Assembly: GCF_988243305.1 (NCBI RefSeq)
Contig: NZ_OZ547136.1
Reading direction: 5' to 3' (one strand)
Length of the DNA stretch: 64,000 nt
The position numbers were made by a program, and so were the translations under genes. A model generated the notes under the pieces. The model did not search any database. It saw nothing but the letters and a program-made list of their open reading frames with translations, and was not told the DNA's origin. Shown here piece by piece: positions 14,767 to 37,123 of the stretch (within the stretch, counting starts at the first letter, position 1; every line of letters starts with the position of its first letter).

Positions 14767-14768
14767 CA

Positions 14769-16444: not shown

Positions 16445-16470
16445 CCCGCACTCGGGGAAGGGAGTGCGGG
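16445..16470 (-). terminator. Hairpin 3' of dctA (cccgcactc / gagtgcggg)
   Basis: 9-bp inverted repeat 15 bp beyond the dctA stop. Confidence 0.5.
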
Positions 16471-16484
16471 CATAAGTGGTGAGA

Positions 16485-17807
<1,323 letters not shown>

Positions 17808-17953
17808 TTATGGGGTACCTGCGGCCTTAAAATAACACCCAGACAACATCACAGAAATGTACCTGGATCATAATTGAAACAAAAAGGTTAAAAAGTTTGA
17901 GCTGGCTCGCACAAACCAGCACTTTTTAAAGTTTTGTAATCAGTTTGGGGTAG

Positions 17954-19942
17954 CTACTTTTCTTCCAGGTAACTCTCTTCGAAGATTTCAATAGGGAGTG
18001 GGCGAGCAAAAAGGAAGCCCTGGGCAATACCAACGCCCGCTTTTGCCAGCCAGTCGCGTTGTGCTTCAGTCTCCACGCCTTCGGCAATCATTTGTAAGTT
18101 CAGGCTTTGCGCCAACATGATAATTGCAGCAATCATGCTGCTATCTTCCGGCAAGCCTTCAACAAACATTTTGTCGATTTTTAACACGTCGATTGGCAAC
18201 GATTTCATATGCTGCAGCTGACGCAGCCCTGCGTAGCCCATGCCGAAATCATCCAGCGCCACCCGAACTCCGGCATTGCGCAGCGGACGGAGGATTGCCA
18301 CCGCAGCATGAGGGTCGTCAATACGTCGGCTTTCTGTCACTTCCAGAATCAGTGTTCCCGGCTGAATGCGATAGCGGGTTAACAGTTCCAGCATATCCGC
18401 CACCATATTCGGGTGCATCAGTTGCAGCGCTGAGAGGTTTACCGACAAGGGCAGCATAATGCCGCGCTCTTGCCAGGCAGCCAGCAGTCGACAGGACTCT
18501 TCCAGCACCCAGTGACCAACGGTAACCATCAGCCCACAGCACTCAATGCGATCGATTAAGCCATCCGGCAGATCCCAACTGCCATCCGGTTGCTGGATAC
18601 GCAGTAACACTTCCGCACTGACCAGTTTACCGCTTGTCATCTCGACCTGTGGCTGTAACCAAATCGCAAACTGATGATTTTCCAGTGCATTAAGGATATC
18701 GCTCTCTTCCGTCAACCGCTGTTGGGCGGCTTCCATCTGCTGCGGATCAAAGAACTGAATCTGATTCTTGCCTTTATGGCGAGCGGTAAATGCCGCAGAA
18801 ATAGCGCGGCTATAAAGCTGTTCGGCGGTGAGATCGCCGTAGAACATCGCCACGCCAATGCTACAGTGCGGACGGAGTTGAATACGTTCAATCGGCAGGC
18901 GCTCGCTCATGATAGTGAGCACTTGCTGACCTAAAGTGATTGCGTGCCACGGTTCCTGTACACCATTGGCAATGACAGCAAAGTCATAACCACTAATCTG
19001 TGCGAGGATCATACGTGGCGACAGTACCGATTTGAGTTTTTCCACCAGCGTCAGCAGCAGAATTTCTCGTTGCGCCTCTTTCAGCACGCCCGCAGTATCA
19101 CGCAGGGTTTCACAGGTGATGATCATCAGCGCGGTGGTTTGTTTACGCGCGACAACCTGCTCCAGCATCTCCATCAGCAAGGCTTTATTCGGCAAATCCG
19201 ACACCGGGAAGCGCATCGCGTTTTCGTTCTGTTCTTCATAATGGCGCTGCAGCAATTGCTGGTTGAGGTTGTAACTGCGCACCAGCATACCGATTTCATC
19301 GTCCTGATGCAGACGTGGTAATGCCAGTTGGTGACCAACAAGCTCCTGGGCTGGAATGGCGTTAAGTTCACGAGCAATATTGCGTAACGGATGCAAAATC
19401 AGGCGGTTAATGCACCAGCTAATCGCCACCGTCAATATTAACGACAAAAGTAAGTAAATGGTCACTAACGTTGAGAGGGTGCTCATCACGAACTTATACA
19501 TGCGGAAGGAATCCGCCTGTAGCACCAGATAGGCAATTGGCTGCGGGTTTGCCGGACGTTCCAGCGAGTAGACACCCAGCGAGATTTGCACCGGTAGCTC
19601 AAACAGGCGAGTAACCATTACCGGCACCGGACGCTCTGGAATAAAACTTTTACGCAGCGCCTGGAACTGGTTGGGCAGCACCACATCGGCACGGCTGACC
19701 ACGCCTGCCGGTTTAATGCTGGCAAGAATAGCTTCCGCTTCGGGAATATCGCCTTTCAAAATAGCTGAAGATAAGGGTTCGCGGACAGAGCGAGCAATGC
19801 TTTCCAGTTGCGTAGCCGTGTTATAGCGATTCTGCTGGACCAGATGGAACAGCAAAACGGTGCAAAAAATAAAAACGAACACCAGGACAACGGCTGCCAC
19901 CATTGCCATCTGCTTGATTGTTAACGAGCGACTTACGCGCAA
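17954..19942 (-). CDS. pdeK: Membrane-bound c-di-GMP phosphodiesterase (HAMP, degenerate GGDEF-like and EAL domains), 662 aa
   Basis: ORF track; N-terminal TM segments; no intact GG(D/E)EF motif visible; EVL variant of EAL (SAEVLLR) and downstream EAL-domain residues. Confidence 0.92.
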
Positions 19943-20023
19943 ATTGTCTCCCCCCGGAAATCCCAGATTGCCGCCCGAGTATACCCGATCGCAGCGGCAT
20001 TAAGAGAGGCGCTATCTGAAAAC

Positions 20024-23000
20024 TTACCAGTCGGCGTAAGGTATCAGCGGCTGCGGCGGTAAATCCATGTCACCCTGCCATCCGGCGGCGGAATAACGTA
20101 CGTAGAGCAGGAAATGGCTGGGTGCGTAATCTTTTGCCTGCTGGATATCAATTGCCGTGCCGACAAACCAGTTGGAAGTAACACGTCGTTCAAGTAATGC
20201 CCGCGCCGTGTAGCCAAAGCCCTGACTGCTGCCGCCATCGTTCGATTGCCGCGCAGCTTCTTCCTGCCAGTCGGTCGGGATCAGACTCATCAGCGGATAA
20301 CGCGGCATGGTTTTGGTGCGTGAATGCGACCACGAGCCAGACGCCCCCAGCTCCCACGACCAGTTTTCCGTGCGCTCCCGCCACATCACCGGTATGGCAA
20401 ACGACAGGTATTCCTGCGGGCTGTAGTAACCGCCCTGACCGAGTGAGTAGCCACTCAGGTCTTTGTCGTAATGCCAGATCATGTTGTTCAGGCCGATTGT
20501 GACGCGGCGATTATTCTGGTTAATGACCTTATAGTAATAGCCCGTCATCCAGCGCACACGCCAGTTATCTTCGACATTTTTACCGGTTAACTGGTCACCG
20601 CTAAGCGATGCCCAGACGCCGTTTGCTTCACCTTTATCGTAGCTCAGGCTTAGCCCCACGCCGTCGGCACGCACGCCACCCCATTTTTTCCCGGTATTGC
20701 TCGGGGAGTCTTTTTGCCCGCCAAAGGCCAGCAAAGAACTGGAAATGGGCCGACGATGGGCGTTAACGGTGTAACCCAGCGGCCCGATATCATCGCTGTA
20801 ACTGATGCCGCCGACCACATCCACCACGTTGAAGCCCATCGGCGTGGTGCCGATATCCCAGCTCCAGACGTCATTTCGCCAACCGACCGCCACGCTGGCA
20901 CCGGAATCCGACTGGCTGCGGTTGCCGCTACAGTCCTGTAATGTACAGGTGCCCCAGTTGTCATCCCATTTGCCATCGGCATTAGTGGAGAAACTGCCGA
21001 CGTTCATATTGACGAAATCACTACGAAAGAACATCCGCCCGTCAGAATACGGCGCATCCACCTGCAACATAGTGGTGTGCGCTTTCAGATCGGAATAACC
21101 ACCGGTGCCGCTCGAACCCCAGTAATCATGCTCAAGGGTGACGTTAAGATCCTGCTGGCGATAGAGGTCCGCCGCATCGCTGCGCACGCCGCGTTTCAGC
21201 CAGTCATCTTTCTCGTCGTTACGGGTCAGTCGGGTAAAGGTGTCGTTATCCTGTGGACGCATCGTGGTCACACCGGATGCAACCATGGCGTCTTTGTAGG
21301 TTTCCAGCGCCTGCGTTGGATCGCCCGCCTGCGCTTCAAACTTCGCACCGTCGCGCAGTACCATCGCGCTTTCCATCGACGGCGGCTGAGATTTTGCCTG
21401 CGGGATCAACTGATTAAACGTCTGCTGCGCCGCTGCGGTATCGCCAAGCTGCGCCTGCGCCAGCGCCACGCGCCGCTGTGTGTTCAGCGAGGCGTTATCG
21501 GTAGCGGGCAGTTTCGCCAGCTGGCTACGTGCCGCCGCTTTGTCACCGGCAGCAATATCCACTTCCGTCAGACCAAGAATGGCATCGGCGTTAGTTGGCT
21601 CCCGCGTCAGGACATTCTTATATGCAGCGCGAGCGGCGGTGTAATCACGTCGTTGTTGCGCCCAGTCAGCCAGCGTGAGGTCTATGCGCGTGGAAGGTGG
21701 TTGCTGGCGCAGCATCGCTTCCGCTTCAGCTTCTTTGCCGCTTTCTCGCAGGCGATTAGCGGTTTCCAGTACCTGATCGCTTTGCAGTCGATTAACCAGC
21801 TCCTGAATATTGCTGCTCCACTGCGCGCGCGGCAGGCTGTTGATATGCGCCAGCGCCGCTCTGTCCTGGTCATGACCAGAGAGATACAGCCCGTAAGCGT
21901 AAACCTGCTCCGGGTCGTTCGGCTTCTGCTGCGCCAGATTACGCATTAACGTATCGGCCTGGCTGCGTTGTCCGGCCTGCCAGAGATCCTGCGAAAGTCG
22001 GTAAGTAATCCATACGCTGCCGGGATCCAGCGCCAGTCGTTGCCGCTGAAGTGCTGCCGCCTGCGCCCATTTGCCCTGCTTTTCCAGTGCCTCTGCCTGC
22101 TGTGCCAGACGGTCGTTTTGCAGGCTGCGTTCGATATCATCAATGCTACGCCGCTGACTGGCAGAGAGCGAGGCGATAAACGCTTCAGCTTTTTCTGGCG
22201 ATTGCTGGCGGTATATATTCGCCAGCCCGCGCACGGCGTTAGTGTTGCCGCTGTCCATACGCAAGGTCTGCTGATAATAACGTTCGGCGGCGGGATAATC
22301 TTTTCGCGCCATCGCCACATCGCCCAGCCCCAGCACTGCATAGCTGTCGGTGTTATCGACATTACGCGCCTGCTGGAACAGCCGTTCTGCCCGGTCAGGA
22401 TTATTGGCTTTCAGCGCAGCATCGCCCTGCTGGATCGCCAGCCAGTAGCGGTTTACTTTCAGGAGACTGTTCCATTTGTCGTTGTTGCTGCTGTGCGGAT
22501 CCAGGGCGAGGGCTTTTTCCAGATTCGCCACCGCATTGGCGCGATCGCCTTTCTGAGAATACGCCTGGCCCAGCGCCCCCAGAGCCTCACTGTCTTTCGG
22601 GTTCGCCCGCACTGCCTGTTGTAGTTCGGGAATGGCTTTACCCGCCATACCAGAGTCCACCGCCGCTAAACCTTGCGCACGAGCGCGGAAAGCAGGGTCG
22701 GCCAGCTGTTTTTGCTGTTCTGCCAGTTGCGATTGCGCCGCAGCTACGCTATCGCCATCACTAAAGATCGAGAGATATTTTTTCAGCGCCGACACACTGG
22801 CATCGCTGACGGGCATATCTTTAATCTGCCCGTACCAGATTTTAGAGGCTCCTTCGCGCCCGGCGTTCGATTTCGCCATCTGTTCCAGGACGGCAAAACC
22901 TTCGTCACGGCGATCGCTACTAAACAGCAATAGCGCCAGATTGTTTTGCAGGCCCGTATTGCCCGGCGTATCCGCATTAATGCGTTTTAGCTGATTAATC

Positions 23001-23497
23001 GCTTCGCCACGGCGAGCCGGAATTTTCGCCACCGTACTCCAGTACTCGACGGCAATGTCACCTTCCGGCGGCGCACCGTTGAACAGTTTGTTGTAACTCG
23101 CCACAGCTTCTTCTGCATGACCAGTCGTCGCCTGCAATCTTGCCTGTTGCAGTGCCTGACGACCATCCGGCGTGGAAAGCAACATTGTGGTCCGCGACGA
23201 TTTATACGCATTTGAACTCGGCGCTAACTGCGACAGCCGATCGAGCTGTTTTTGCGCGCCATCAATATCGCCCTGACGTAACAGAGAACGGAAACGGGCG
23301 GCAACGACGTCCGGGTTATTCGGATCAATAAGTTCCAGCCGATACAACGACTGTTGCACCAGGTCTTCACGATGGGTCGCTTCGCCTAACCGAACTTGCT
23401 CCAGCAACTGTTGCTGAGCGGTTGGTGCTGCCTCGACCATCGGCATGACGGCCAGCCCGAGGGAAAGCGTGAATATGTTTAGTGTGAATTTGCGCAT
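20024..23497 (-). CDS. bcsC: Cellulose synthase outer-membrane/TPR subunit BcsC, 1157 aa
   Basis: ORF track; signal peptide, long TPR-like Ala/Gln-rich repeats, C-terminal beta-barrel-like region; recognised as BcsC. Confidence 0.96.
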
Positions 23498-24585
23498 TCC
23501 TGGCCCCAGTCAGGTAATAACTCACCTTTTGTCGAGAAGCGGAAACGGTGTTGATCCCAGCCTTGTCCAAACAGGGTCAGCACATAGTTGTAATAGGCAT
23601 CGCTGCCGGGAAAGTTATCGGCCACGCGCTGGCGCTGAACGGCCTGCGCATCGCGGTTTTGTAAAAAGGGCAGCATGGCGGCAGAAAAACCGACCGGTCC
23701 TTTACCCTGCGCTTTCCCCGAAGCTACATCGACTTTTTCCGGCGGATAACCGTTTTTCTCGGTGAATGTCGCCATCGGTTTAAACCGGTTGAGCATCCGC
23801 GCTTTTTGCGGATCGCTGTCAGGCATCATGCCTACCCACATGTAAACGCGGATCGCGTCGTAGCTGCTGATCAATGTTTTTTCGGCTTTTAGCTGCCAGC
23901 CTTTGTCTTTCTCATAGCGCACCCAGTCTGGCGAAAAGCCTTTCGGGGCGGTTTCCAGCAATAAACGTTGATTGGTTTCGCGCAGCGTGGTCCACGGCGC
24001 GCCAAAGCGGGTGAAATACTGCGCCAGCGTCGGCGGCAGGTAGCTGGGGTTAAAACGCCAGCTGTTATCCTCTGCAAATCCCACTTTGCCCGGCAACAAC
24101 ATGGAACCCAGTCCAGGCACCGTCACCACTTCCTCCCGCGCAATACGTTTTAACAACGCGCTGCCGATGTCGGTATAACGCTGCTCTTTCCACAAACGCC
24201 CCGCCTCCAGCAACGACCAGGCCATCCAGACATCACCATCGGAGGCCGAATTGCTGTCCAGCACTTCCCACTTACTGTTCTCTTTCTTGCCCCACAGCCA
24301 TGCGGGCAAGCGTTCTTTTAAAGAACCCTGAGCGAGATTGTTCTGCGTCCAGTCGAGAATATTATCGAAAGCTGCACGGTCGTTAGCCGCCAGGGCAAAG
24401 AACATGCCGTAACTTTGTCCTTCGGAGGTGGTGATTTTGCGCGCGTCGCTGGGGTCGATGACGCGCCCTTCCTGACTGATGTAATCCTTTTTAAACTGCT
24501 CCCAGGCAGGCCAGGTACAGGCTGCCTGAACACTAAAGGCAGCCAGCAGCAGCATCGTCACGAGTCCACTACGCAACACATTCAT
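23479..24585 (-). CDS. bcsZ: Periplasmic endo-1,4-beta-glucanase (GH8), 368 aa
   Basis: ORF track 23479..24591; canonical start [17 protein letters not shown] at the internal ATG (24585); overlaps the bcsC start by 19 bp. Confidence 0.94.
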
Positions 24586-24591
24586 CTTCAA

Positions 24592-26931
24592 TTACTCGTT
24601 ATCCGGGTTAAGACGACGACGGCTGATAATACGCAGCAGACGCCACAGTACCCAGGCCAGCAGCACGACGCTGATTGCCGCCAGCACCGCCAGCAGAATC
24701 GGATGGTTTGCCAGGGCATACCATAAGCGTTCGAACCACGGCAGATGGCCAACGTAATAGACGTCGCCAACGCGTAGGCTATTGATACCGGACTCGCGGA
24801 TCACCGCGACCGAACCGAACATGGTGGCGCGTTTGCCGCTATCGTTCACCGCATCGTTAAGCATTTCATAACCGCGTGGGCTATCTGCCAGCAGCGCAAT
24901 CACGCTGCGCTGGTCGTTATACGGCGACTGGAAGCCAATCACCGCCGCCATCGCACCGGAAGAGGTCAGCGTTGACTGGGTTTCTGCCGCGCGATCGCTC
25001 TCGTCCGGAACAATGCCGGGGAACGGGGTCTGGCGCATCGGCGTTTTCACCCAGCTTTCGGTCGCCTGCACCAACAGGTCGATCTGCTTGTCGTCTTTCA
25101 GTTTGTCCGGGATACCACCGATGATCATGATGTCGGCATCTTTGCCCTGAATGGTGCTGCCATCATCGGTCACCGTCAGATTAATCGCCGGGAAGCCCGT
25201 CTGTGCGCCGATAAAACCAACAGTATTCAGCAACGTTTCCATCTGTGCTTCGTTAGGCGTTTTCGGCATCACGGTGATGGTTTGCGACAGATCCGCCATC
25301 CGGCTGAACGGGAAGCCCGCGTTAGCAAAAGCGCGTAGATCCGGCATCGGGATGAAGTGGTAATACTTCGAGAAGTCGATGGTGGAATCGTCACCAATCA
25401 CCACATGATTCTGCACCGGCTGGAAGGTAATACAGTTATCCACCGAACCGCCAGGCATCGGGTTCATATACTCAAAGTCAAAGCGCAGCTGGTTGGTCGC
25501 GCCCAGTTTCAGCGCCGGAATAGAGACATCCGTTTTGCCATCCAGCAAACCTTGTAATACCGGAATCCGCAGCAGCAGGCGGTTCGCCTCCTGTTTGCTG
25601 CTCAGATTGAATGATTGCAGGAACTGGTTATTCAGGCTGATATCCATCCGCGAACTGTCTTTCACCGGCGGCATGGTGTAGCGGTAATTAATATCCATAT
25701 CAATGCCGGTACTGCGCATCAGGTAGAGATCTGGCGGCAGGTTTAGCGAAACATTAATCGCTGCTGGCTCAAGACCGCTGGATTGCAACTGTTCTTCATA
25801 GGTTTTCAGTTCACCAAAGGTGACCGGACGATCGGTACGCACCCAGTTCGGCGCATCGTACGGCTTACGCGGTAGCAGCGGTTTCACTTCATTCACTACC
25901 ACGCTTTCACCACGGAACAGAATGTTACCCTGAGCGATACCTTTCGCTGCCTGCAACAGGTCTTTGTCGTCACGACCAAACACCACCAGCAGTTTGACGT
26001 AAGGATTCTGCGGATGGTTGATCATCTCAATCACCGGGGCTTTTACCGCCGGATGATCGCGCAGGAAATCCGGGCGTTTGTCATTGGTGGCAAAAACGAT
26101 GGCATTGCGATCCGGCAATTGGTTATAGAGCACCGGGAAGTTCTGCCCACGCCAGCCAGAACGCGAACCAAACCACGAGGCGACAATGGCAGATGCTTGT
26201 TGCAGCCCGACATCCGGCGCACCCGCAAAGACCATCGGCAAGGTGTTAGTACGGTTATCACGCGGGTCAAAGAATGGTACCGGGAAGTGTGACAGGTCAT
26301 TCTTCACATTCAGGGTCTGATAGGTCAGATCCAGTCCACTGCTCCGCCCAACATCCAGCCAAAGCGTGGTGCTGGCCGGGTTTTCGCACACGTCCTGATA
26401 ATGACCGACAAACTCCAGCCGCACACGGTTGAAGTCGGTAATAAACAGTGGGTTAATGGGCATTTGTGCCAGCGTTTTTTTACCCAACTGTTCTTTGGTC
26501 ACTGGCAGCACGCCCATCAGTTCATCATTGAGATAAACCTTTAACTGCGACTGGACAGGCAGTAACGATGGCGATGGCGTGTATTCGAGGTTGAGCATCG
26601 CCTTCGTCACCACTTCATCGCTGCGCATACCAAACTCAATGCTGCCGTTCGGGTTAATGCCACGTAGCACCATGCTGCCCGGCGGCGGCGCAATTTGCGC
26701 AAAGGTCAGCTTCACATCACGCGAAGGACCGTTCTGCGCCACGACTGGCGCATCAGCGCCCTGCACGCCCGGCATCACTTGCCCCACCTGCGGATTTTGT
26801 TCCGTCTGGGCGGCTACAGCTGGCTCAGCATTGATCAGTGGTTGCGTTGCTGGCGTCGCCTGCGTCATGAAAGAGGGGAACGCACTCATCCCCATAGCCA
26901 CTGCACAAATCCAGAATAGTTTTCTTTTCAT
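24592..26931 (-). CDS. bcsB: Cellulose synthase periplasmic subunit BcsB, 779 aa
   Basis: ORF track 24592..27018 is over-extended; canonical start MKRKLFWICAVAMGMSAF (signal peptide) at the internal ATG (26931); C-terminal TM anchor. Confidence 0.94.
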   Translation of the reverse strand: MKRKLFWICAVAMGMSAFPSFMTQATPATQPLINAEPAVAAQTEQNPQVGQVMPGVQGADAPVVAQNGPSRDVKLTFAQIAPPPGSMVLRGINPNGSIEFGMRSDEVVTKAMLNLEYTPSPSLLPVQSQLKVYLNDELMGVLPVTKEQLGKKTLAQMPINPLFITDFNRVRLEFVGHYQDVCENPASTTLWLDVGRSSGLDLTYQTLNVKNDLSHFPVPFFDPRDNRTNTLPMVFAGAPDVGLQQASAIVASWFGSRSGWRGQNFPVLYNQLPDRNAIVFATNDKRPDFLRDHPAVKAPVIEMINHPQNPYVKLLVVFGRDDKDLLQAAKGIAQGNILFRGESVVVNEVKPLLPRKPYDAPNWVRTDRPVTFGELKTYEEQLQSSGLEPAAINVSLNLPPDLYLMRSTGIDMDINYRYTMPPVKDSSRMDISLNNQFLQSFNLSSKQEANRLLLRIPVLQGLLDGKTDVSIPALKLGATNQLRFDFEYMNPMPGGSVDNCITFQPVQNHVVIGDDSTIDFSKYYHFIPMPDLRAFANAGFPFSRMADLSQTITVMPKTPNEAQMETLLNTVGFIGAQTGFPAINLTVTDDGSTIQGKDADIMIIGGIPDKLKDDKQIDLLVQATESWVKTPMRQTPFPGIVPDESDRAAETQSTLTSSGAMAAVIGFQSPYNDQRSVIALLADSPRGYEMLNDAVNDSGKRATMFGSVAVIRESGINSLRVGDVYYVGHLPWFERLWYALANHPILLAVLAAISVVLLAWVLWRLLRIISRRRLNPDNE

Positions 26932-26941
26932 CGCGTTATCA

Positions 26942-29560
26942 TCATTGTTGAGCCAAAGCCTGATCCGATGGTTGTGCCGTTTCGCTCCGCTCCGGGCGGC
27001 GCGGAATAAACGATACAACCCAGGAAACCAGAGAAGTCAGCACACGGAATATGCCCTTCACCGAAGAAGGCGCAAACTCCGCCAGATGGCGGTAGCCACG
27101 GAAGCCGAGCTTCAGAATATCCAGCAGACTTTCCAGCGGCTTATCTTCCGGATAGCTGTCCTGCCAGAGCGCCCATGTATCCGCACGGGCAAACGTACAC
27201 TGCACAAAATCGATATGTTGCTGGGTGGTGAGCGGCATTAATTTCAACCCAACTTCATTACCCATCACGCGCGCCACCTGGGTGGGGAAGACGTATTCCT
27301 GCTGACCGCGTTTAAGCAACAGATTCACTTTCTGCCCTTCCAGAATCTGCGCCTGACCGTTGATCTTGATCCCCAAACCACCATCGGAGAAATCCTGAAC
27401 GGTACACGAGAAGAGGTGACCATCTTCGCGGGCAATTGCCGCGGGCATCGTCATCTCCACGCGGTGCGATCGGCGCACCTGTTTGCTTTCTACCGATACC
27501 GCAACTGCGCCGCCAAGAACAATCAGGTTGTAGAATACCCACACCATACTGACGACCACGGTGAGCATCTCGGTTGGCGGGCCATAGAAGTAGCGCCAGA
27601 TGCCTACCGCAACGCCCACCAGGTTGAGCAGGACAAGGAAGATGTAGGGCCGCGAGATCACCCAGTCGACGTACTCTTCTTCCACCAGTCCACCTTTGGC
27701 GGTGACGTTAAATTTGCCTTTGTGCGGGTTAATCAGCGCCACCAGCGTCGGTGGTGCGATATACCACGCCAGCACCGTTTCGTAGATTTCACTCCAGAAA
27801 GAGTGGCGATATTTGCCCTGGATCTTGGAGTTGGTCAGGCTGGCATGGATCATATGCGGCAGCACGAAAAGGGCGATCATCAACGCTGGCGCATAGATGA
27901 TGTAGGCATGAAGCAGCAGGAACGCCAGCGGCGCAGTCAGGAAGATCAGCCGTGGAATGCCCGACAAGAAGTGGAACATGGCGTTGACGTAACATAGCCG
28001 CTGAGCAAACTTCAGCCCTTTACCGGTGAGCGGGTTATCGAGACGGAAGATTTGCACCATCCCGCGCGCCCAGCGAATACGCTGACCAATATGCGCCGAC
28101 AGACTTTCGGTCGCCAGCCCCGCCGCCTGCGGAATACGCATATATGCAGAGGTGTAGCCACGACGGTGCAGGCGCAAAGAGGTATGCGCATCTTCAGTCA
28201 CAGTTTCGACAGCAATGCCGCCAATTTCATCCAGCGGCTTACGGCGAATCACCGCACAGGAACCGCAGAAGAAAGTGGCGTCCCACATATCGTTGCCATC
28301 CTGCACCAGACCATAGAACAGCGTGCCTTCGTTCGGTGTTTTACGGAAACGTCCCAGGTTGCGTTCAAACGGGTCCGGTGAGAAGAAGTGGTGCGGCGTC
28401 TGCATCATCGCCAGTTGTTTTTCTTTCAGGAACCAGCCCATGGTCATTTGCAGGAACGATCGCGTTGGTACGTGGTCGCAGTCGAAAATCGACACGAACT
28501 CGCCTTTGGCATATTTCAGCGCATTGTTGATGTTGCCCGCTTTCGCATGTTCATGAGTGGTACGGGCGATATATTTCACCCCCACGTTTTGCGCAAACTG
28601 GCGAAACTCTTCCCTGCCGCCGTCATCAAGGATCCAGATGTTCAGTTTGTCTTTCGGCCAGTCGATACCCAGCGAGGCGTAAATGGTATTTTTCACCACG
28701 TTGAGATCTTCGTTGTAAGTCGGGACAAAGATATCCACCGACGGCCACAGCGACATATCTTTCGGCAATGGCACCGGCTGACGATTCAGCGGCCATACTA
28801 CCTGGAAGTAGCCGAGCACGAGCACAATCCACGCGTACGTTTCAGCGAAGAGCAGAATAAGCCCGCACACCAGGCTGACCGGATCGTCCCAGTTCAGCGT
28901 AGAGGTGTAGCGCCACCAGATATAACGGCAAGAAACGGTCAGCGACAGCACAATCAACATTAGCGCCGAGAAGCGCCCCGGCATCCGCCGTACGATCAGC
29001 GCTACACCCCACAGCAGCATCAGGAAGATAAACTGCGCCAGCGGGTTAAACGGCTGGGTAACGCAGATTAACGCCAGAATCAGCGAGAAGGTGACGATGA
29101 TACCGAGGATCAACCGCCGCGCCCCGGCGCTCAAATGACCGAGCTCTTTTTTCTCATCGAGATGCTGTGTTTTATGGCTAACGCGCTCAGGCAGCTCGTT
29201 CATCCATTGATGGTAACGTCCACGAATATTCTGCAGACCTGAAAATGTCCGCCTGTGCGGTTTCGGCGTTTCTTTGCGCGATGTACCGATCAGTAACCAG
29301 CATGTTTGAATGAGATAACGGACCGGGTCCAGCGGACGCGGACGCGAGGCGTTGATATGCGGATACAGGTTTTTATGTTCTGCGCGAATACGCTGCCAGC
29401 GCGGGTGCTCCAGCGGAATAAAAATCCAGGCCAGGATCAACCAAAAACAGCCGAGCGTCGCGCTGAAAGCCGACGCGCCGTGACGACGATAATCGCGATA
29501 ACGCCCGATAAGCCGCGCGTTGACCGGCGGGATAAGCAACCACCGGGTCAGGATACTCAT
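26942..29560 (-). CDS. bcsA: Cellulose synthase catalytic subunit BcsA (GT2 with C-terminal PilZ domain), 872 aa
   Basis: ORF track; GT2 motifs DCD, TED and QRIRW; PilZ motifs RRSHR and DFSDGG; start overlaps the bcsQ stop (ATGA). Confidence 0.96.
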   Translation of the reverse strand: MSILTRWLLIPPVNARLIGRYRDYRRHGASAFSATLGCFWLILAWIFIPLEHPRWQRIRAEHKNLYPHINASRPRPLDPVRYLIQTCWLLIGTSRKETPKPHRRTFSGLQNIRGRYHQWMNELPERVSHKTQHLDEKKELGHLSAGARRLILGIIVTFSLILALICVTQPFNPLAQFIFLMLLWGVALIVRRMPGRFSALMLIVLSLTVSCRYIWWRYTSTLNWDDPVSLVCGLILLFAETYAWIVLVLGYFQVVWPLNRQPVPLPKDMSLWPSVDIFVPTYNEDLNVVKNTIYASLGIDWPKDKLNIWILDDGGREEFRQFAQNVGVKYIARTTHEHAKAGNINNALKYAKGEFVSIFDCDHVPTRSFLQMTMGWFLKEKQLAMMQTPHHFFSPDPFERNLGRFRKTPNEGTLFYGLVQDGNDMWDATFFCGSCAVIRRKPLDEIGGIAVETVTEDAHTSLRLHRRGYTSAYMRIPQAAGLATESLSAHIGQRIRWARGMVQIFRLDNPLTGKGLKFAQRLCYVNAMFHFLSGIPRLIFLTAPLAFLLLHAYIIYAPALMIALFVLPHMIHASLTNSKIQGKYRHSFWSEIYETVLAWYIAPPTLVALINPHKGKFNVTAKGGLVEEEYVDWVISRPYIFLVLLNLVGVAVGIWRYFYGPPTEMLTVVVSMVWVFYNLIVLGGAVAVSVESKQVRRSHRVEMTMPAAIAREDGHLFSCTVQDFSDGGLGIKINGQAQILEGQKVNLLLKRGQQEYVFPTQVARVMGNEVGLKLMPLTTQQHIDFVQCTFARADTWALWQDSYPEDKPLESLLDILKLGFRGYRHLAEFAPSSVKGIFRVLTSLVSWVVSFIPRRPERSETAQPSDQALAQQ

Positions 29561-30309
29561 GATTTACTCCCGACTGGCGTTTTCAGCCCGGAATAGTTCA
29601 ACAGGCACCAGTTAGCCAGCGTCAGTATCTCTTCAGCCGCCAGCGCATCACTGCGATATTCACCGACTGGTTGCTTAGCCGCCAGGCATTCAGCCATCGC
29701 TTCATCACGATGAATGAGCATCGGCAGTAATCGGCGCTGGCTTTGCAACCAAAGCTGGTAAATATCGTCCTGAACTTGACTGCCGATACGGAAGTCATTA
29801 ATCAAAATATGCGCGCCATCCGGCAGCGCCTGCTGATGCAGCCGGATATGGCAGTTGGCATCCACATTGACGATTGCCAGCGAGTGATCGCACAAACTCA
29901 GCAGCTGGTGGGTTATCTGCGAGGAATCACGCGGTAAGTCGATTAAAATCCAATGGTAACGCCCGCTGGCTTTTAGTTGCTGTAAGCCGGAGCAAATATC
30001 GCTCAGCCGGGTTTGCCAGTGCTGTGGATTTTCTTGTTCTTCAATGGATAACTGACCAAAAGGCAGCAAATCGAGTTGCGAGGTATAGCGCAACCCAGCG
30101 TCACGCCAGTCCTGGCCATCCAGCATAGCTCTGGCCCAGCCCTGACGGTGGGTAAAATCAACGTTAAATGACAGGCGCAACAAGTTGTCCGGGCAGGCAT
30201 CGACCACCAGGACATTTTCTCCCAACATTTGTAATGACCAGGCTAATGCGGCGGTGATGGTTGTTGTCCCCACGCCTCCCCGCACCCCCTGCAATCCCAG
30301 TACGGCCAT
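29557..30309 (-). CDS. bcsQ: Cellulose biosynthesis protein BcsQ (MinD/ParA-like ATPase), 250 aa, apparently intact
   Basis: ORF track; deviant Walker A GVRGGVGTTT; codon 6 is TTG (Leu), with no premature stop. Confidence 0.93.
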   Translation of the reverse strand: MAVLGLQGVRGGVGTTTITAALAWSLQMLGENVLVVDACPDNLLRLSFNVDFTHRQGWARAMLDGQDWRDAGLRYTSQLDLLPFGQLSIEEQENPQHWQTRLSDICSGLQQLKASGRYHWILIDLPRDSSQITHQLLSLCDHSLAIVNVDANCHIRLHQQALPDGAHILINDFRIGSQVQDDIYQLWLQSQRRLLPMLIHRDEAMAECLAAKQPVGEYRSDALAAEEILTLANWCLLNYSGLKTPVGSKS

Positions 30310-30320
30310 TCACCAATCCC

Positions 30321-30509
30321 CTACTTTTGTTGCGCAAACTCTGCCAGCAACGGCCAGCGTTTTAATGCCGCGGCCAACTGTTCGCGTTGGGAAATATCGG
30401 CATAATCAATATCAGGCAGTGAAAATGCCTGCTTTAACGCCAAAATATCATTCTGGAAGATATAGCCTATCGCGGGATCAGGCAGAGTATCTGGTTCATT
30501 GTTATTCAT
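30321..30509 (-). CDS. bcsR: Small cellulose-biosynthesis protein BcsR, 62 aa
   Basis: ORF track 30321..30551; canonical start MNNNEPDTLPDPAIGYIF at the internal ATG (30509). Confidence 0.88.
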   Translation of the reverse strand: MNNNEPDTLPDPAIGYIFQNDILALKQAFSLPDIDYADISQREQLAAALKRWPLLAEFAQQK

Positions 30510-30780
30510 TTGCTTGATCCCTATGAAATAACCGTACCGTTCATGAGACAATTCTAACCGTGAGCATTTCGCCGGTTTATTGTTTACGGCGAGACGGGAA
30601 TTTGCTCACTTTTTGACTTTCCGTTACGCAACAAAAAAAGTTAAAAACGAAAAGACTAAAATCACACGTCTTGTGACCTGCTAAATTGATTCACATGCTA
30701 AATCTGATAAGTTTTAATTTCAATGGTAGGTTTATTTCTTAGCTTTCGCTAGTAAACTGATAATCAGACAAAATGATGAC
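30510..30780. promoter_or_regulatory. Divergent bcs promoter region (bcsRQABZC leftward, bcsEFG rightward)
   Basis: 271-bp AT-rich non-coding interval between divergently oriented first genes of the two bcs operons. Confidence 0.6.
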
Positions 30781-32352
30781 ATGAGGGACATTGTGGACCC
30801 TGTATTCTCTATCGGTATCTCATCATTATGGGATGAGCTGCGACATATGCCAGCAGGCGGCGTCTGGTGGTTTAACGTCGATCGCCATGAAGATGCTATC
30901 AGTCTGGCGAATCAAACAATTGCATCCCAGGCTGAAACCGCACACGTCGCGGTCATTAGCATGGACAGCGATCCGGCGAAAATCTTTCAATTAGATGATT
31001 CTCAAGGGCCGGAAAAAATAAAATTATTTTCAATGCTAAATCATGAAAAAGGTCTATACTATTTGGCCCGTGATTTGCAGTGTTCTATTGATCCCCATAA
31101 TTACCTTTTTATTCTTGTTTGCGCAAATAACGCATGGCAAAACATTCCTGCCGAGCGGCTTCGCTCATGGTTGGATAAAATGAATAAATGGAGCAGGTTA
31201 AACCATTGTTCGCTTTTGGTAATTAATCCCGGAAATAATAACGATAAACAATTTTCATTGTTGCTTGAGGAATACCGTTCACTTTTTGGTCTTGCCAGTT
31301 TGCGTTTTCAGGGCGACCAACATTTGCTGGATATTGCCTTCTGGTGCAACGAAAAAGGGGTCAGCGCCCGTCAGCAGCTTAGCGTTCAGCAACAAAATGG
31401 TATCTGGACATTAGTTCAAAGCGAAGAGGCGGAGATCCAACCACGCAGCGACGAAAAACGCATTCTGAGTAATGTTGCTGTACTGGAAGGTGCGCCGCCG
31501 CTATCGGAACACTGGCAACTGTTCAACAATAACGAAGTCCTGTTCAATGAAGCCCGTACCGCTCAGGCGGCGACGGTGGTCTTTTCTTTACATCAAAATG
31601 CGCAAATCGAGCCACTGGCCCGCAGCATTCATACTCTGCGTCGCCAGCGCGGTAGTGCGATGAAAATCCTCGTACGGGAAAATACCGCTAGCCTGCGCGC
31701 CACCGATGAACGTTTGTTATTGGCCTGCGGTGCAAATATGGTTATCCCATGGAATGCCCCACTCTCCCGCTGTCTGACGATGATCGAAAGCGTGCAAGGG
31801 CAGAAGTTTAGTCGCTATGTGCCGGAAGATATCACTACCTTGCTGTCAATGACCCAGCCGCTCAAACTGCGTGGTTTCCAGAAGTGGGATGTGTTCTGTA
31901 ATGCCGTCAACAACATGATGAATAACCCTCTATTACCTGCCCACGGTAAAGGCGTTCTGGTTGCCCTACGTCCGGTACCGGGTATCCGCGTTGAGCAAGC
32001 CCTGACGCTGTGTCGCCCTAACCGCACCGGCGATATCATGACTATTGGCGGTAATCGGCTGGTGCTGTTTCTCTCATTCTGTCGGATTAACGATCTGGAT
32101 ACCGCGTTGAATCATATTTTCCCATTGCCGACTGGCGACATTTTCTCAAACCGTATGGTCTGGTTTGAAGATGATCAAATCAGTGCCGAGCTGGTGCAGA
32201 TGCGCCTGCTTGCCCCAGAACAATGGGGCATGCCGCTGCCTTTAACGCAAAATTCTAAACCGGTCATTAATGCCGAGCACGATGGTCGCCACTGGCGACG
32301 AATACCAGAACCAATGCGACTGTTAGATGATGCTGTGGAGCGCTCATCATGA
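30781..32352 (+). CDS. bcsE: c-di-GMP-binding protein BcsE (GIL domain), 523 aa
   Basis: ORF track; recognised as BcsE/YhjS. Confidence 0.95.
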
Positions 32353-32540
32353 TGACCATCAGCGATATCATTGAAATTATTGTCGTTTGCGCACTGATAT
32401 TTTTCCCGCTGGGCTATCTGGCGCGGCACTCTTTGCGACGCATTCGCGACACCTTACGTTTGTTCTTTGCTAAACCTCGTTATGTTAAACCGGCCGGGAC
32501 GTTACGCCGCACGGAAAAAGCCAGGGCAACCAAAAAATGA
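32349..32540 (+). CDS. bcsF: Small membrane protein BcsF, 63 aa
   Basis: ORF track; single TM helix; start overlaps the bcsE stop. Confidence 0.9.
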
Positions 32541-34216
32541 CTCAATTTACGCAAAATACCGCCATGCCTTCTTCCCTCTGGCAATACTGGCGCGGCCTTT
32601 CCGGCTGGAACTTCTATTTTCTGGTTAAGTTCGGCCTGTTGTGGGCGGGATATCTTAACTTCCATCCGCTCCTCAATCTGGTGTTTGCCGCGTTTCTGCT
32701 GATGCCCATTCCGCGCTACAGCCTGCATCGCTTACGCCACTGGATTGCCCTGCCGATCGGCTTTGCTTTGTTCTGGCATGACACCTGGTTACCTGGCCCG
32801 GAAAGCATAATGAGCCAGGGTTCGCAGGTGGCGGGGTTCAGTACCGATTATTTAATCGACCTTGTCACACGCTTTATTAACTGGCAGATGATTGGGGCCA
32901 TTTTTGTTTTATTAGTGGCCTGGTTATTCCTGTCACAATGGATTCGCATTACCGTTTTTGTGGTTGCCATTCTGCTATGGCTGAACGTACTTACCCTGGC
33001 GGGACCAAGTTTCTCCTTGTGGCCAGCCGGTCAACCGACGACCACTGTAACAACGACGGGTGGTAACGCAGCGGCAACCGTTGCGGCGACGGGTGGCGCA
33101 CCGGTAGTGGGTGATATGCCCGCACAAACTGCACCGCCAACAACGGCGAACCTTAACGCCTGGCTGAATAATTTCTATAACGCGGAGGCGAAACGTAAAT
33201 CGACCTTCCCGTCTTCGCTGCCCGCTGATGCTCAGCCATTTGAACTACTGGTGATTAATATCTGTTCGCTTTCCTGGTCGGATATAGAAGCCGCCGGGTT
33301 GATGTCGCATCCGCTGTGGTCGCATTTCGATATTGAGTTCAAGAACTTTAACTCCGCCACCTCCTACAGTGGCCCGGCGGCGATCCGTTTACTGCGCGCC
33401 AGCTGCGGGCAGACTTCGCACACTAATCTGTATCAACCGGCAAATAATGACTGCTATCTGTTTGATAACCTGTCGAAACTGGGCTTTACCCAGCACCTGA
33501 TGATGGGACATAACGGCCAGTTCGGCGGTTTTTTGAAAGAAGTTCGCGAAAATGGCGGCATGCAGACCGAATTGATGGATCAAACAAATTTGCCGGTTAT
33601 TTTGCTGGGCTTTGATGGTTCGCCGGTTTATGACGATACCGCCGTGCTTAACCGCTGGCTGGACGTTACCGAAAAAGATAAAAACAGCCGTAGTGCCACG
33701 TTCTACAACACGCTTCCACTGCATGACGGCAACCATTATCCGGGCGTCAGCAAAACAGCGGATTACAAAGCGCGGGCGCAGAAATTCTTTGATGAACTGG
33801 ACGCCTTCTTTACTGAACTGGAGAAATCGGGTCGTAAAGTGATGGTGGTCGTGGTGCCGGAACACGGTGGCGCGCTGAAGGGCGACAGAATGCAGGTATC
33901 TGGCCTACGTGATATCCCTAGCCCGTCTATCACAGACGTCCCCGTTGGGGTGAAATTCTTCGGCATGAAGGCACCACATCAGGGGGCACCGATTGTCATC
34001 GACCAACCGAGCAGCTTCCTGGCTATCTCCGATCTGGTGGTTCGCGTTCTTGATGGCAAGATTTTCTCCGAAGACAATGTTGACTGGAAAAAACTCACCA
34101 GTGGGTTGCCACAAACAGCACCGGTCTCAGAGAACTCAAATGCAGTAGTTATTCAATACCAGGATAAACCGTACGTTCGCCTGAACGGCGGCGACTGGGT
34201 GCCTTACCCGCAATAA
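32537..34216 (+). CDS. bcsG: Cellulose phosphoethanolamine transferase BcsG, 559 aa
   Basis: ORF track; N-terminal TM segments plus alkaline-phosphatase-like periplasmic domain; start overlaps the bcsF stop. Confidence 0.95.
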
Positions 34217-34221
34217 GAACG

Positions 34222-34253
34222 AAAAAGGCCGCAGAGTTTCACCCCTGCGGCCT
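34222..34253 (-). terminator. Intrinsic terminator of ldr copy 1 (ggccgcag / ctgcggcc followed by U-run on the minus strand)
   Basis: 8-bp GC stem with a TTTTT run on the minus strand, about 50 bp 3' of the ldr stop. Confidence 0.7.
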
Positions 34254-34302
34254 GGTCCGGGCGCAAATTGCCATTACGGCAGCCTGACGCCCGCATGACA
34301 CG

Positions 34303-34410
34303 TTACTTCCGCTTATTCAGCGAGTTCACGATCAGACTGGCAAGAATGCCAGCAATGACCGGAGCCGCTAAATCATGCCAGAAGGCCATGCCCAGTTCTG
34401 CGAGCGTCAT
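34303..34410 (-). CDS. ldr: Type I toxin Ldr, 35 aa (copy 1, MTLAELGMAFWHDLAAPVIAGILASLIVNSLNKRK)
   Basis: Last 35 codons of ORF 34303..34545 from the internal ATG at 34410; matches the Ldr small membrane toxin family; carries Ser in place of Trp at residue 30. Confidence 0.85.
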   Translation of the reverse strand: MTLAELGMAFWHDLAAPVIAGILASLIVNSLNKRK

Positions 34411-34458
34411 ATAGCCGCCTCTGTTGTAATGACAACGTTTCGCGGCTATTCTTGAGTT

Positions 34459-34522
34459 GTTTGGGTTCAAGATTAGCCCCCGTGATGTTGTCAGGTGCAT
34501 ACCTGCAATATGCGGGGGTTTT
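34459..34522 (+). ncRNA. rdl: Rdl antisense RNA (antitoxin) of ldr copy 1, approximate ends
   Basis: Plus-strand stem-loop agcccccg...cgggggtttt (intrinsic terminator) antisense to the ldr leader; 5' end inferred from the recalled RdlD sequence. Confidence 0.5.
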
Positions 34523-34704
34523 CTCTCTCCAGCAACCAATGCCACTAGGGATTAAGCCCCCGCAACATTGCGCCTCACCGGAACCCTTCCGGCTTGCCGC
34601 TGATTCTACGGCCATTTTTGTTCGTCGAAATCCATCACTTCTTCACTCTGTGCTGCGCATTCCGCAGAATATTATCCGCTTGCAACCGTTGCATTTTTCT
34701 TACG

Positions 34705-34736
34705 AAAAAGGCCGCAGAGTTTTATCCCTGCGGCCT
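34705..34736 (-). terminator. Intrinsic terminator of ldr copy 2
   Basis: Same hairpin plus U-run as in unit 1, shifted by 483 bp. Confidence 0.7.
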
Positions 34737-34785
34737 GATCCGGGCGCAAATTGCCATTACGGCAGCCTGACGCCCGTCTGACACG

Positions 34786-34893
34786 TTACTTCCGCTTGTT
34801 CAGCCAGTTCACGATCAGACTGGCAAGAATGCCAGCAATGACCGGAGCCGCTAAATCATGCCAGAAGGCCATGCCCAGCTCTGCGAGCGTCAT
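34786..34893 (-). CDS. ldr: Type I toxin Ldr, 35 aa (copy 2, ...ILASLIVNWLNKRK)
   Basis: Last 35 codons of ORF 34786..35061 from the internal ATG at 34893. Confidence 0.85.
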   Translation of the reverse strand: MTLAELGMAFWHDLAAPVIAGILASLIVNWLNKRK

Positions 34894-34941
34894 ATAGCCG
34901 CCTGAGTTGTAATGACAACGTTTCGCGGCTATTCTTGTATT

Positions 34942-35005
34942 GTTTGGATGCAAGAATGGCCCCCGTGGTGTTGTCAGGTGCATACCTGCAACGTGCGGGG
35001 GTTTT
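34942..35005 (+). ncRNA. rdl: Rdl antisense RNA of ldr copy 2, approximate ends
   Basis: Plus-strand gcccccgtggtgttgtcaggtgcatacctgcaacgtgcgggggtttt stem-loop and terminator; the 5' part differs from copies 1 and 3. Confidence 0.45.
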
Positions 35006-35187
35006 CTCTCTCCAGCAACCAATGCCACCAGGGATAAAGCCCCCGCAACATTGCGCCTCACCGGAACCTTTCCGGCTTGCCGCTGATTCTACGACTGTTT
35101 TTCTGCTCCGGAATCCGTCACTTCTTCACTCTGTGCTGTGCATTCCGCAGAATATTATCCGCTTGCAACCGTTGCATTTTTCTTACG

Positions 35188-35219
35188 AAAAAGGCCGCAG
35201 AGTTTTATCCCTGCGGCCT
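35188..35219 (-). terminator. Intrinsic terminator of ldr copy 3
   Basis: Same hairpin plus U-run, shifted by 966 bp from unit 1. Confidence 0.7.
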
Positions 35220-35268
35220 GATCCGGACGCAACTTGCCATTACGGCAGCCTGACGCCCGTCTGACACG

Positions 35269-35376
35269 TTACTTCCGCTTATTCAGCCAATTCACGATCA
35301 TGCTGGCAAGAATGCCAGCAATGACCGGAGCCGCTAAATCATGCCAGAAGGCCATGCCCAGTTCTGCGAGCGTCAT
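35269..35376 (-). CDS. ldr: Type I toxin Ldr, 35 aa (copy 3, ...ILASMIVNWLNKRK)
   Basis: Last 35 codons of ORF 35269..35511 from the internal ATG at 35376. Confidence 0.85.
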   Translation of the reverse strand: MTLAELGMAFWHDLAAPVIAGILASMIVNWLNKRK

Positions 35377-35424
35377 ATAGCCGCCTGTGTTGTAATGACA
35401 ACGTTTCGCGGCTATTCTTGAGTG

Positions 35425-35488
35425 GTCTAGGTTCAAGATTAGCCCCCGTGATGTTGTCAGGTGCATACCTGCAACGTGCGGGGGTTTT
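35425..35488 (+). ncRNA. rdl: Rdl antisense RNA of ldr copy 3, approximate ends
   Basis: gtctaggttcaagattagcccccg...cgggggtttt on the plus strand; best match to the RdlD sequence as I recall it. Confidence 0.5.
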
Positions 35489-35851
35489 CTCTCTCCAGCA
35501 ACCAATGCCACCAGGGATTAAGCCCCCGCAACATTGCGCCTCACCGGAACCTTTCCGGCTTGCCGCTGATTTTACGATTGCTTTTTACCGTCAGCACCCG
35601 GCAATCTTCCTCATTGCGCGATGCCTTCCAGCTTAATTTCTTTATTTGCAATAGTTGCAGTTCATATCCGAGCTGACTCCAGACTGGTAGTGAAATGCGC
35701 AATTTTGTAGAATTGCGCCTCCTCGCGACCTCCCCAGTGAATCTGTTGCCTCATTTTTTACATACTGCGTATTCGACTTCTCCACCTGTTGCGCAAGAGA
35801 AACTGGGTTTATTCATTTTTGCGAGGCCGACTTCTTTCTGGACAGGACTTT

Positions 35852-37123
35852 ATGCAGCACAACACACTACCGAAACACAATCAGAAATTGCCGTTTACAC
35901 GCTACGACTTCGGCTGGGTTTTATTATGCATAGGCATGGCGATTGGTGCCGGAACCGTGCTGATGCCAGTACAAATTGGCTTGAAGGGAATTTGGGTATT
36001 TATTACCGCAGCGATCATTGCTTATCCTGCCACCTGGGTAGTGCAGGACATTTATTTAAAAACCCTTTCTGAAAGCGATTCCTGTAATGACTACACCGAT
36101 ATTATCAGTCATTACCTGGGGAAGAACTGGGGAATTTTCCTCGGGGTTATCTACTTTTTGATGATTATCCACGGGATTTTTATCTACTCTCTCTCCGTGG
36201 TTTTCGACAGCGCCTCGTACCTGAAAACCTTCGGTTTAACCGATGCCGATCTTTCACAATCTCTACTTTATAAAGTCGCCATTTTCGCCGTACTGGTGGC
36301 AATTGCGTCTGGTGGTGAACGATTACTGTTTAAGATTTCCGGGCCAATGGTGGTGGTCAAAGTAGGGATTATCGTCGTGTTCGGTTTTGCGATGATCCCG
36401 CACTGGAATTTCGCCAATATAACCGCCTTCCCGCAAGCCTCCGTCTTTTTCCGCGATGTCCTGCTTACCATTCCCTTTTGCTTCTTTTCTGCGGTATTTA
36501 TTCAGGTACTTAACCCAATGAATATTGCCTATCGTAAACGGGAAGCGGATAAAGTACTGGCAACCCGGCTCGCGCTGCGTACCCACCGAATTAGTTATAT
36601 CACGCTCATTGCGGTGATCCTGTTTTTTGCCTTTTCGTTTACCTTCTCAATTAGCCACGAAGAAGCCGTTTCTGCCTTTGAACAAAATATCTCGGCACTG
36701 GCACTGGCCGCGCAGGTGATCCCTGGGCATATCATTCATATCACCTCTACGGTGCTGAATATCTTTGCCGTACTGACCGCATTCTTTGGCATTTATCTCG
36801 GTTTCCACGAGGCCATTAAAGGCATTATTCTCAATCTGTTAAGCCGAATTATTGATACCAAGAAAATTAACTCACGCATGCTGACTCTGGCGATCTGCGC
36901 TTTTATCGTCATTACGTTGACGATTTGGGTTTCGTTTCGTGTATCGGTGCTGGTGTTCTTTCAGTTGGGAAGCCCGTTATATGGCATTGTGTCGTGCCTC
37001 ATTCCGTTTTTCCTGATCTATAAAGTCGCACAACTGGAAAAACTTCGCGGGTTTAAAGCCTGGCTGATTCTGCTGTACGGCATTTTGTTATGCTTGTCGC
37101 CACTGTTGAAGCTGATTGAGTAA
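35852..37123 (+). CDS. yhjV: Putative amino-acid transporter (HAAAP/STP-like inner-membrane protein), 423 aa
   Basis: ORF track 35789..37123; canonical start [15 protein letters not shown] at the internal ATG (35852); polytopic membrane protein. Confidence 0.92.

Follow-up and report, generated by a model that had tools for sequence, protein, structure and literature searches.

An intact bcsQ with TTG at codon 6 predicts a cellulose-competent bcs locus in a natural Escherichia coli lineage

The bcsQ gene of the window (the whole stretch of DNA that was analysed, 64,000 nucleotides) is intact. With a probability of roughly 90%, we regard it as the normal wild-type bcsQ of a naturally occurring E. 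coli lineage, set in a complete and undamaged type II locus composed of bcsRQABZC and bcsEFG. A preliminary description had predicted a cellulose-competent bcs locus from the intact bcsQ, and this prediction is supported at the sequence level: because of the TTG codon, the nine intact genes and the conservation of known motifs, the locus is genetically competent. The features of bcsQ on which this reading is based are the following.

29557..30309, minus strand: bcsQ, intact, encoding a MinD/ParA-like (SIMIBI class) nucleotide-binding protein of 250 aa (open reading frame, NF007460, match to 6YBU)
30292..30294, minus strand: codon 6 of bcsQ, TTG (Leu) here and TAG in K-12; the plus strand reads CAA
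30259..30288, minus strand: BcsQ residues 8-17, GVRGGVGTTT, the N-terminal P-loop (deviant Walker A), from the translation; the same residues are found in PDB 6YBU
29557..29560, minus strand: ATGA, in which the bcsQ stop (TGA) overlaps the bcsA start (ATG), with AAA TCA TGA over ATG AGT

The reading frame begins with ATG and is open for 250 codons before the stop. Its 5' codons are ATG GCC GTA CTG GGA TTG CAG GGG GTG CGG GGA GGC GTG GGG ACA ACA ACC, and the translated N-terminus of BcsQ is MAVLGLQGVRGGVGTTT. The position of the TTG codon, the length of the open frame and the deviant Walker A motif are all as the preliminary description had given them. The gene lies between bcsR (30321..30509) and bcsA (26942..29560), all three on the minus strand, and its four-nucleotide overlap with bcsA is consistent with translational coupling of the two genes.

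The assignment of the protein is well supported. BcsQ scores 541.2 bits against the NCBIfam equivalog NF007460 (cut-off 399) over residues 1-249 of 250, and 297.8 bits against TIGR03371 (cut-off 157.85). Furthermore, the Pfam entry for this protein on locus L003, which is essentially identical to the one studied here, is PF06564 (CBP_BcsQ). Of its 250 residues, 247 match the solved structure of E. coli BcsQ, 6YBU (E 6e-168), and the MinD structures 4V02 and 4V03 give a weaker match to the N-terminal region, residues 6-151. The exact protein sequence is present on at least 1000 public contigs.

Among the closest known systems is BcsQ of E. coli 1094, solved in BcsRQ and BcsRQE complexes (PDB 6YBU, 6YAR, 6YBB). 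It also has 250 residues and an identical P-loop, GVRGGVGTTT, and its gene is likewise located between bcsR and bcsA; the three substitutions that separate the two proteins, Q119H, A129S and N172D, are conservative. This 98.8%-identical protein is known to bind ATP, to form complexes with its partners BcsR and BcsE and to be required for cellulose secretion (PDB entries above; reviewed in PMC8461298), and BcsQ in the window would be expected to behave likewise. Published structures and genetics place BcsQ together with BcsR and BcsE in a regulatory assembly of the cytosol, docked on the BcsA PilZ domain, and show that cellulose secretion requires BcsQ.

MG1655 bcsQ (NC_000913.3) carries a pseudogene annotation. 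Compared base by base over 753 nt, it differs from the window gene at 17 positions. Among these is gene position 17, where the window has T and MG1655 has A (17T>A), which accounts for TTG versus TAG at codon 6; the pairwise alignment proposed in the preliminary description thus gave the outcome it had anticipated, and the window does not carry the K-12-type null allele. The K-12 pseudogene (b3534 in MG1655/W3110) is the same gene, of the same length and in the same position, with a DNA identity of 97.7%, and besides codon 6 it differs from the window by three amino acids, Q119H, A129S and A249K. The K-12 stop was reportedly described by Serra et al. in 2013 as polar on bcsA. The TAG codon of K-12 is documented (PMC5944007, PMC7397504, PMC5014196), as is its cellulose-negative phenotype (PMC5944007, PMC5014196), and the change from TAG to TTG at codon 6 of W3110, which yields strain AR3110, restores cellulose (PMC7397504, PMC5014196). 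The earlier claims that K-12 has TAG at this codon and that the codon abolishes cellulose synthesis therefore stand. The further claim of polarity on bcsA is one of two explanations for the K-12 defect, since the literature leaves open whether it results from the loss of BcsQ itself or from polarity on downstream genes (PMC5944007).

AR3110, a documented producer of pEtN-cellulose (PMC7397504), shares with the window both TTG at codon 6 and an intact nine-gene locus. It has an engineered K-12 background, whereas the window belongs to a natural lineage that is 1-4% divergent across the locus. Since AR3110 differs from W3110 solely at codon 6 (PMC7397504), the eight remaining bcs genes must be functional in their K-12 form.

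The remaining genes of the locus and the adjoining pdeK are arranged as follows.

30321..30509, minus strand: bcsR (yhjR), 62 aa, at the head of the bcsRQABZC operon, gap-free to K-12; NF040717
26942..29560, minus strand: bcsA, 872 aa, catalytic subunit of cellulose synthase with a GT2 core and a PilZ domain; NF008558
24592..26931, minus strand: bcsB, 779 aa, periplasmic co-catalytic subunit; NF008325, 1388 bits versus a cut-off of 922
23479..24585, minus strand: bcsZ, 368 aa, GH8 periplasmic endoglucanase (K-12 alignment, NCBIfam)
20024..23497, minus strand: bcsC, 1157 aa, TPR region and outer-membrane channel; NF008520, 2197 bits versus a cut-off of 858
30781..32352, plus strand: bcsE, 523 aa, c-di-GMP-binding regulator, divergent from bcsR; NF011619, 1189 bits versus a cut-off of 929
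32349..32540, plus strand: bcsF, 63 aa, DNA identical to K-12; TIGR03493, above the cut-off
32537..34216, plus strand: bcsG, 559 aa, cellulose-modifying phosphoethanolamine transferase (K-12 alignment, NCBIfam)
17954..19942, minus strand: pdeK (hmsP/yhjK), 662 aa, c-di-GMP phosphodiesterase adjoining the operon, gap-free to K-12

All nine bcs genes (bcsC, bcsZ, bcsB, bcsA, bcsQ, bcsR, bcsE, bcsF and bcsG) align end to end with MG1655 without gaps and encode proteins of the K-12 lengths, and the alignments contain no internal stop in any of them. No indels, stops, altered starts or lost motifs were found in these genes or in pdeK. The NCBIfam cut-offs are passed by 9 of 9 Bcs proteins, eight of them with equivalog models and BcsR with an exception-type model, and the Pfam families recorded on L003 agree with the assignments. 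These alignments and model matches bear out the statement that the other eight genes are full length; a lesion elsewhere in the bcs genes and a TTG at this codon in K-12, which the preliminary description had named as evidence against itself, were both looked for, and neither was found.

Type II (E. coli-like) clusters consist of the divergent bcsRQABZC and bcsEFG operons, with all nine genes present and pdeK/hmsP adjoining. The window has this same organization and shows no structural difference from such clusters, only allelic variation. The classification is that of Romling and Galperin from 2015.

BcsA scores 1792 bits against NF008558 (cut-off 992), and its four substitutions relative to K-12 are all N-terminal (M41L, A93T, R102H and A105T). 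The motifs listed in the preliminary description are all present: DCD360 (DxD), TED455 and QRIRW493 (QxxRW) as GT2 catalytic motifs, and RRSHR696 (RxxxR) and DFSDGG723 (DxSxxG) as the PilZ c-di-GMP motifs. The protein also carries a further GT2 motif, FNVTAK617 (FxVTxK gating loop), as well as HAKAGN338 and FFCGS430. BcsR differs from K-12 by one substitution, V23L, and scores 75.8 bits against the exception-type model NF040717 (cut-off 46) over residues 20-61. The accessory catalytic and ligand-binding residues occupy their expected positions as well. BcsZ contains E55 and D243, BcsG contains C243, Y277, S278, H396, E442 and H443, with S278 and the Zn site among them, and BcsE contains the RxGD motif as R415TGD.

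The nine Bcs proteins carry 35 amino-acid substitutions relative to K-12, codon 6 excluded, with 10 in BcsC. Public data contain all ten exact protein sequences (nine Bcs and PdeK), on 53 to at least 1000 contigs: 53 for BcsC, 99 for BcsE, 543 for BcsA and at least 1000 for BcsB. There are no private Bcs alleles of the kind that could indicate recent damage; since every allele recurs in public data, none of them is a private lesion.

We also considered the neighbouring regulators and the promoter. PdeK shows three substitutions relative to K-12, and its exact allele is found on at least 1000 contigs; the pdeK product locally counteracts the activation of cellulose synthase (PMC7397504). An EAL-domain gene adjoining kdgK (ORF 12745..13557; its call on the near-identical L003 is 255 aa long) is taken to be pdeH/yhjH. 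In the divergent promoter region between bcsR and bcsE, the run of T immediately before the bcsR ATG has 1 nt fewer than in K-12, and there are three SNPs. A regulatory lesion was considered here and rejected: all four differences are common to the natural isolate NY1601 and represent ordinary polymorphism. No sequence features pointing to an altered amount or regulation of cellulose were seen.

Complete E. coli genomes place the codon in context. An exact 61-mer around codon 6 with TTG occurs in 3,551 of 5,247 such genomes, and the corresponding 61-mer with the K-12 TAG in 349 of 5,247. TAG carriers look like K-12 laboratory derivatives in 60 of 60 cases among the matches listed. WCHEC035053S1G0, a candidate natural carrier of TAG, proved to be K-12-derived and 100% identical to MG1655 over 14 kb. 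TTG at codon 6 is the wild-type, common state, and the TAG of K-12 is the odd one out. With an 804-nt query covering bcsQ and the 3' end of bcsR, all 30 records among the matches listed show 100% identity, and 467 complete genomes match at 99% or more. With such conservation, bcsQ is a full-length orthologue, and a chance resemblance can be set aside. Across this region, none of 5,426 complete genomes exceeds 99.2% identity to the window, whereas natural draft assemblies come within 1 SNP per 23.5 kb of it.

With TTG at codon 6, full-length BcsQ would be made. Translation would run to the ATGA junction with bcsA, and, unlike in K-12, neither BcsQ function nor downstream expression would be lost. 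Phosphoethanolamine-cellulose would then be possible, given transcription of the locus and activation of BcsA by c-di-GMP. From the sequence we infer that the Bcs proteins are probably active and that the strain may actually make cellulose. A competent locus is not the same as a cellulose-positive strain: the phenotype is also determined by regulators that lie outside the window, namely CsgD, DgcC (adrA), RpoS and mlrA.

The alternative that survives best is an intact locus in a strain that is cellulose-negative, or only conditionally positive, for a cause outside the window (lesions in csgD, dgcC, rpoS or mlrA, or strong PdeH/PdeK); we consider it unlikely, though a serious contender. BL21 and H10407 provide a precedent, with full-length bcs genes and yet no calcofluor signal (PMC5944007), and cellulose/rdar expression varies widely among isolates, depending on CsgD, DgcC and PdeK (PMC5635171, PMC7397504). 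The window itself holds two negative regulators, the intact pdeK and the presumed pdeH/yhjH. However, no lesion of any kind is seen anywhere in its 64 kb, and in natural isolates an intact bcs locus usually goes together with cellulose production under at least one condition.

A cryptic loss-of-function missense change, by which a locus that looks intact is inactive, is improbable. Such changes have been offered as speculation for negative strains (PMC5944007), and the 35 substitutions relative to K-12, with BcsC and BcsE as the least common alleles, leave some room for one. Nevertheless, no substitution hits the known catalytic or ligand-binding residues that were checked, the alleles recur in many independent assemblies, and the scores lie far above the equivalog cut-offs. 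It is more doubtful still that, in this sparsely sampled lineage, the rarer BcsC and BcsE alleles or the variant bcsR-bcsE promoter might alter the amount or regulation of cellulose. Finally, a laboratory strain similar to AR3110, in which TTG arose by secondary reversion or engineered repair of the K-12 TAG, is scarcely credible: it has the codon itself in its favor and nothing more, and it is refuted by the 1-4% divergence from MG1655 of every gene compared except the identical bcsF, with further contrary evidence in the three ldr/rdl copies of the window versus one in K-12, in the close match to natural draft assemblies and in the 100% identity of genuine K-12 derivatives to MG1655 in this region.

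The preferred reading, an ordinary wild-type bcsQ in an undamaged locus, describes an already known state with nothing unusual about it. An intact bcs locus is ancestral and expected, and it raises no new question. The observation is mildly useful because loss of bcs function is common in some pathogenic clones: of 76 common sequence types, 74 include loss-of-function mutations in bcs genes, 14 of the 76 have them in over 80% of their strains, and ST167, ST617 and ST744 carry a bcsQ nonsense mutation (PMC10881479). Its value lies mainly in annotation: unlike K-12, this strain has the genetic capacity for a cellulose-based biofilm matrix.

The bcsQ gene of the window is a minus-strand open reading frame (29557..30309) that opens with ATG and runs for 250 codons before its stop. 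Translation of its 5' end, ATG GCC GTA CTG GGA TTG CAG GGG GTG CGG GGA GGC GTG GGG ACA ACA ACC, gives the BcsQ N-terminus MAVLGLQGVRGGVGTTT. Codon 6 is TTG (plus strand CAA, 30292..30294), and the frame and this codon together bear out the intact bcsQ proposed in the preliminary description. In the product, 247 of 250 residues agree with the crystallised E. coli BcsQ (PDB 6YBU). At 29557..29560 the stop codon of bcsQ and the start codon of bcsA share bases in an ATGA, an overlap that would fit translational coupling.

Base-by-base comparison with MG1655 (NC_000913.3:3680000-3705000) revealed 17 differences over the 753 nt of bcsQ. At gene position 17 the window has T and MG1655 has A, resulting in TTG versus TAG at codon 6. 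Polarity of this stop on bcsA was reportedly argued by Serra et al. in 2013. In the NC_000913.3 annotation, bcsQ (b3534) is a pseudogene. The K-12 gene is given as 'TTG/TAG (17 T > A)' in PMC5944007, and TAG at this codon is likewise stated in PMC7397504 and PMC5014196. The K-12 stop given in the preliminary description is right, because the MG1655 comparison and the three papers agree. As to its effect, PMC5944007 leaves both loss of BcsQ and polarity on bcsA possible.

In K-12-type RefSeq genomes, the PGAP annotation of bcsQ is a 242-aa CDS (WP_011310329.1) beginning anew at GTG codon 9, 3' of the TAG; in the K-12 derivative NZ_CP034595.1 it lies at 7039..7767, corresponding to codon 9 onward of the window gene. 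Since this protein is named 'cellulose biosynthesis protein BcsQ' without a pseudogene flag, the K-12 lesion is masked in annotation text alone, and only the curated MG1655 record carries the pseudogene mark.

The frequency of the two codons was surveyed in 5,247 complete E. coli genomes with a 61-base query centred on the SNP. The TTG version has an exact match in 3,551 of them and the K-12 TAG version in 349; genomes matching neither have another SNP inside the 61 bases. The 60 TAG carriers listed of the 349 are K-12 laboratory derivatives by name, among them MG1655 lines, C600, DH5alpha, DH1, J53, RR1, HMS174 and NCM3722. The single doubtful name among those listed, WCHEC035053S1G0, matches MG1655 over 14 kb with 100% identity. 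TTG is thus the wild type and normal state of codon 6, and TAG a K-12 peculiarity.

Over 16-20 kb of the window (region 1..36000), identity to the best of 5,426 complete RefSeq E. coli genomes reaches at most 99.2%, with evenly distributed differences, while the draft assemblies GCA_021701955.1 and GCA_029362355.1 each differ by 1 base over 23,474 bp. The sole difference from GCA_021701955.1 lies at the third position of bcsA codon 491 and is synonymous. These comparisons point to a genuine natural lineage with few finished genomes, and rule out the window as a K-12 derivative.

The remaining bcs genes are full length, as had been described. In BLAST searches with the MG1655 genes, bcsC, bcsZ, bcsB, bcsA, bcsQ, bcsR, bcsE, bcsF and bcsG each gave one gapless end-to-end alignment, as did pdeK, dctA, yhjJ, yhjV and dppF, with identities from 95.6% to 100%. 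The translated bcs genes are as long as their K-12 counterparts and free of internal stops.

Amino-acid differences between the Bcs proteins of the window and K-12
BcsA: 4
BcsB: 7
BcsZ: 3
BcsC: 10
BcsQ: 3, plus codon 6
BcsR: 1
BcsE: 3
BcsF: 0
BcsG: 4

All four BcsA substitutions fall within the N-terminal 105 residues. The GT2 and PilZ motifs noted earlier in BcsA are all present (DCD360, TED455, QRIRW493, RRSHR696, DFSDGG723), together with HAKAGN338, FFCGS430 and the gating-loop FNVTAK617. Residues considered functionally important are also all present: C243, Y277, S278, H396, E442 and H443 of BcsG, E55 and D243 of BcsZ, and R415TGD of BcsE. All nine Bcs proteins pass NCBIfam curated cut-offs, eight with equivalog models and BcsR with an exception-type model (residues 20-61). 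AR3110, identical to W3110 except at codon 6, produces pEtN-cellulose (PMC7397504). It follows that the remaining eight genes work in their K-12 form, and few changes, mostly conservative, separate the window proteins from that form.

Exact-sequence look-up found 10 of 10 proteins (the nine Bcs proteins and PdeK) already in public data: BcsQ, BcsB, BcsZ, BcsR, BcsF, BcsG and PdeK on at least 1000 contigs each, BcsA on 543, BcsE on 99 and BcsC on 53. Unusual bcs alleles are absent from the window.

Several further elements were observed around the locus.

34219..35586, bcsG-yhjV interval: ldr/rdl type I toxin-antitoxin (toxin ldr with antisense RNA rdl), repeated 2.8 times in tandem at a 483-bp period with 93% matches
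34303..34410, 34786..34893 and 35269..35376, minus strand: three ldr ORFs
34459..34524, 34942..35007 and 35425..35490, plus strand: three rdlD (Rfam)
43466..43601, minus strand: RtT-family element (Rfam, 98.7 bits), between dppA and an eptB-like ORF
43637..43710, minus strand: tRNA, with the RtT element immediately downstream
54907..55334, plus strand: cspA 5'-UTR thermoregulator (Rfam, 501 bits)
55617..55768, minus strand: sok antisense RNA of a hok/sok module

MG1655 has one ldrD/rdlD at the bcsG-yhjV position, whereas the window and the natural isolate NY1601 have three, so the ldr/rdl number is a natural copy-number polymorphism. The divergent bcsR-bcsE intergenic region (30510..30780) has 3 SNPs relative to MG1655 and one T fewer in the run immediately before bcsR, which shortens the spacer to the ATG; NY1601 has the same sequence. 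The cspA thermoregulator and sok are both expected at this E. coli chromosomal position.

Codon 6 alone predicts little, since bcs lesions are frequent elsewhere in the locus and an O157:H7 strain carries the TTG 61-mer. Loss-of-function mutations in bcs occur in 74 of 76 common E. coli sequence types, affect >80% of strains in 14 of the 76 (PMC10881479), and reach 100% of sampled ST11 strains (PMC10881479 source data). An O157:H7 strain is among the best 5 of the 3,551 TTG matches. This serotype is associated with ST11. The case for competence is instead carried by the nine-gene check, which is clean here, and the locus is very probably (about 0.9) genetically competent for cellulose synthesis.

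An intact locus is necessary for cellulose but not sufficient: BL21 and H10407 have full-length bcs genes, yet lack a calcofluor signal (PMC5944007). Production needs RpoS, CsgD and DgcC acting as a cascade, and PdeK counteracts it (PMC7397504, PMC5014196). Of this wider control, the window holds only intact pdeK and an EAL-domain gene read as pdeH. Both c-di-GMP phosphodiesterases, putative pdeH/yhjH (12745..13557, 255 aa as called on a near-identical locus) and pdeK/hmsP (17954..19942, 662 aa), lie in the flanking region and appear intact. Of the earlier prediction of cellulose competence, the genetic part holds, while the phenotype is a reasonable expectation from sequence, detectable cellulose under standard inducing conditions being likely, if less so than competence itself. 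An intact bcs locus with TTG is the wild-type state already known for this well-studied locus, and the two phosphodiesterases, as negative inputs to matrix production, bear on its being switched on.
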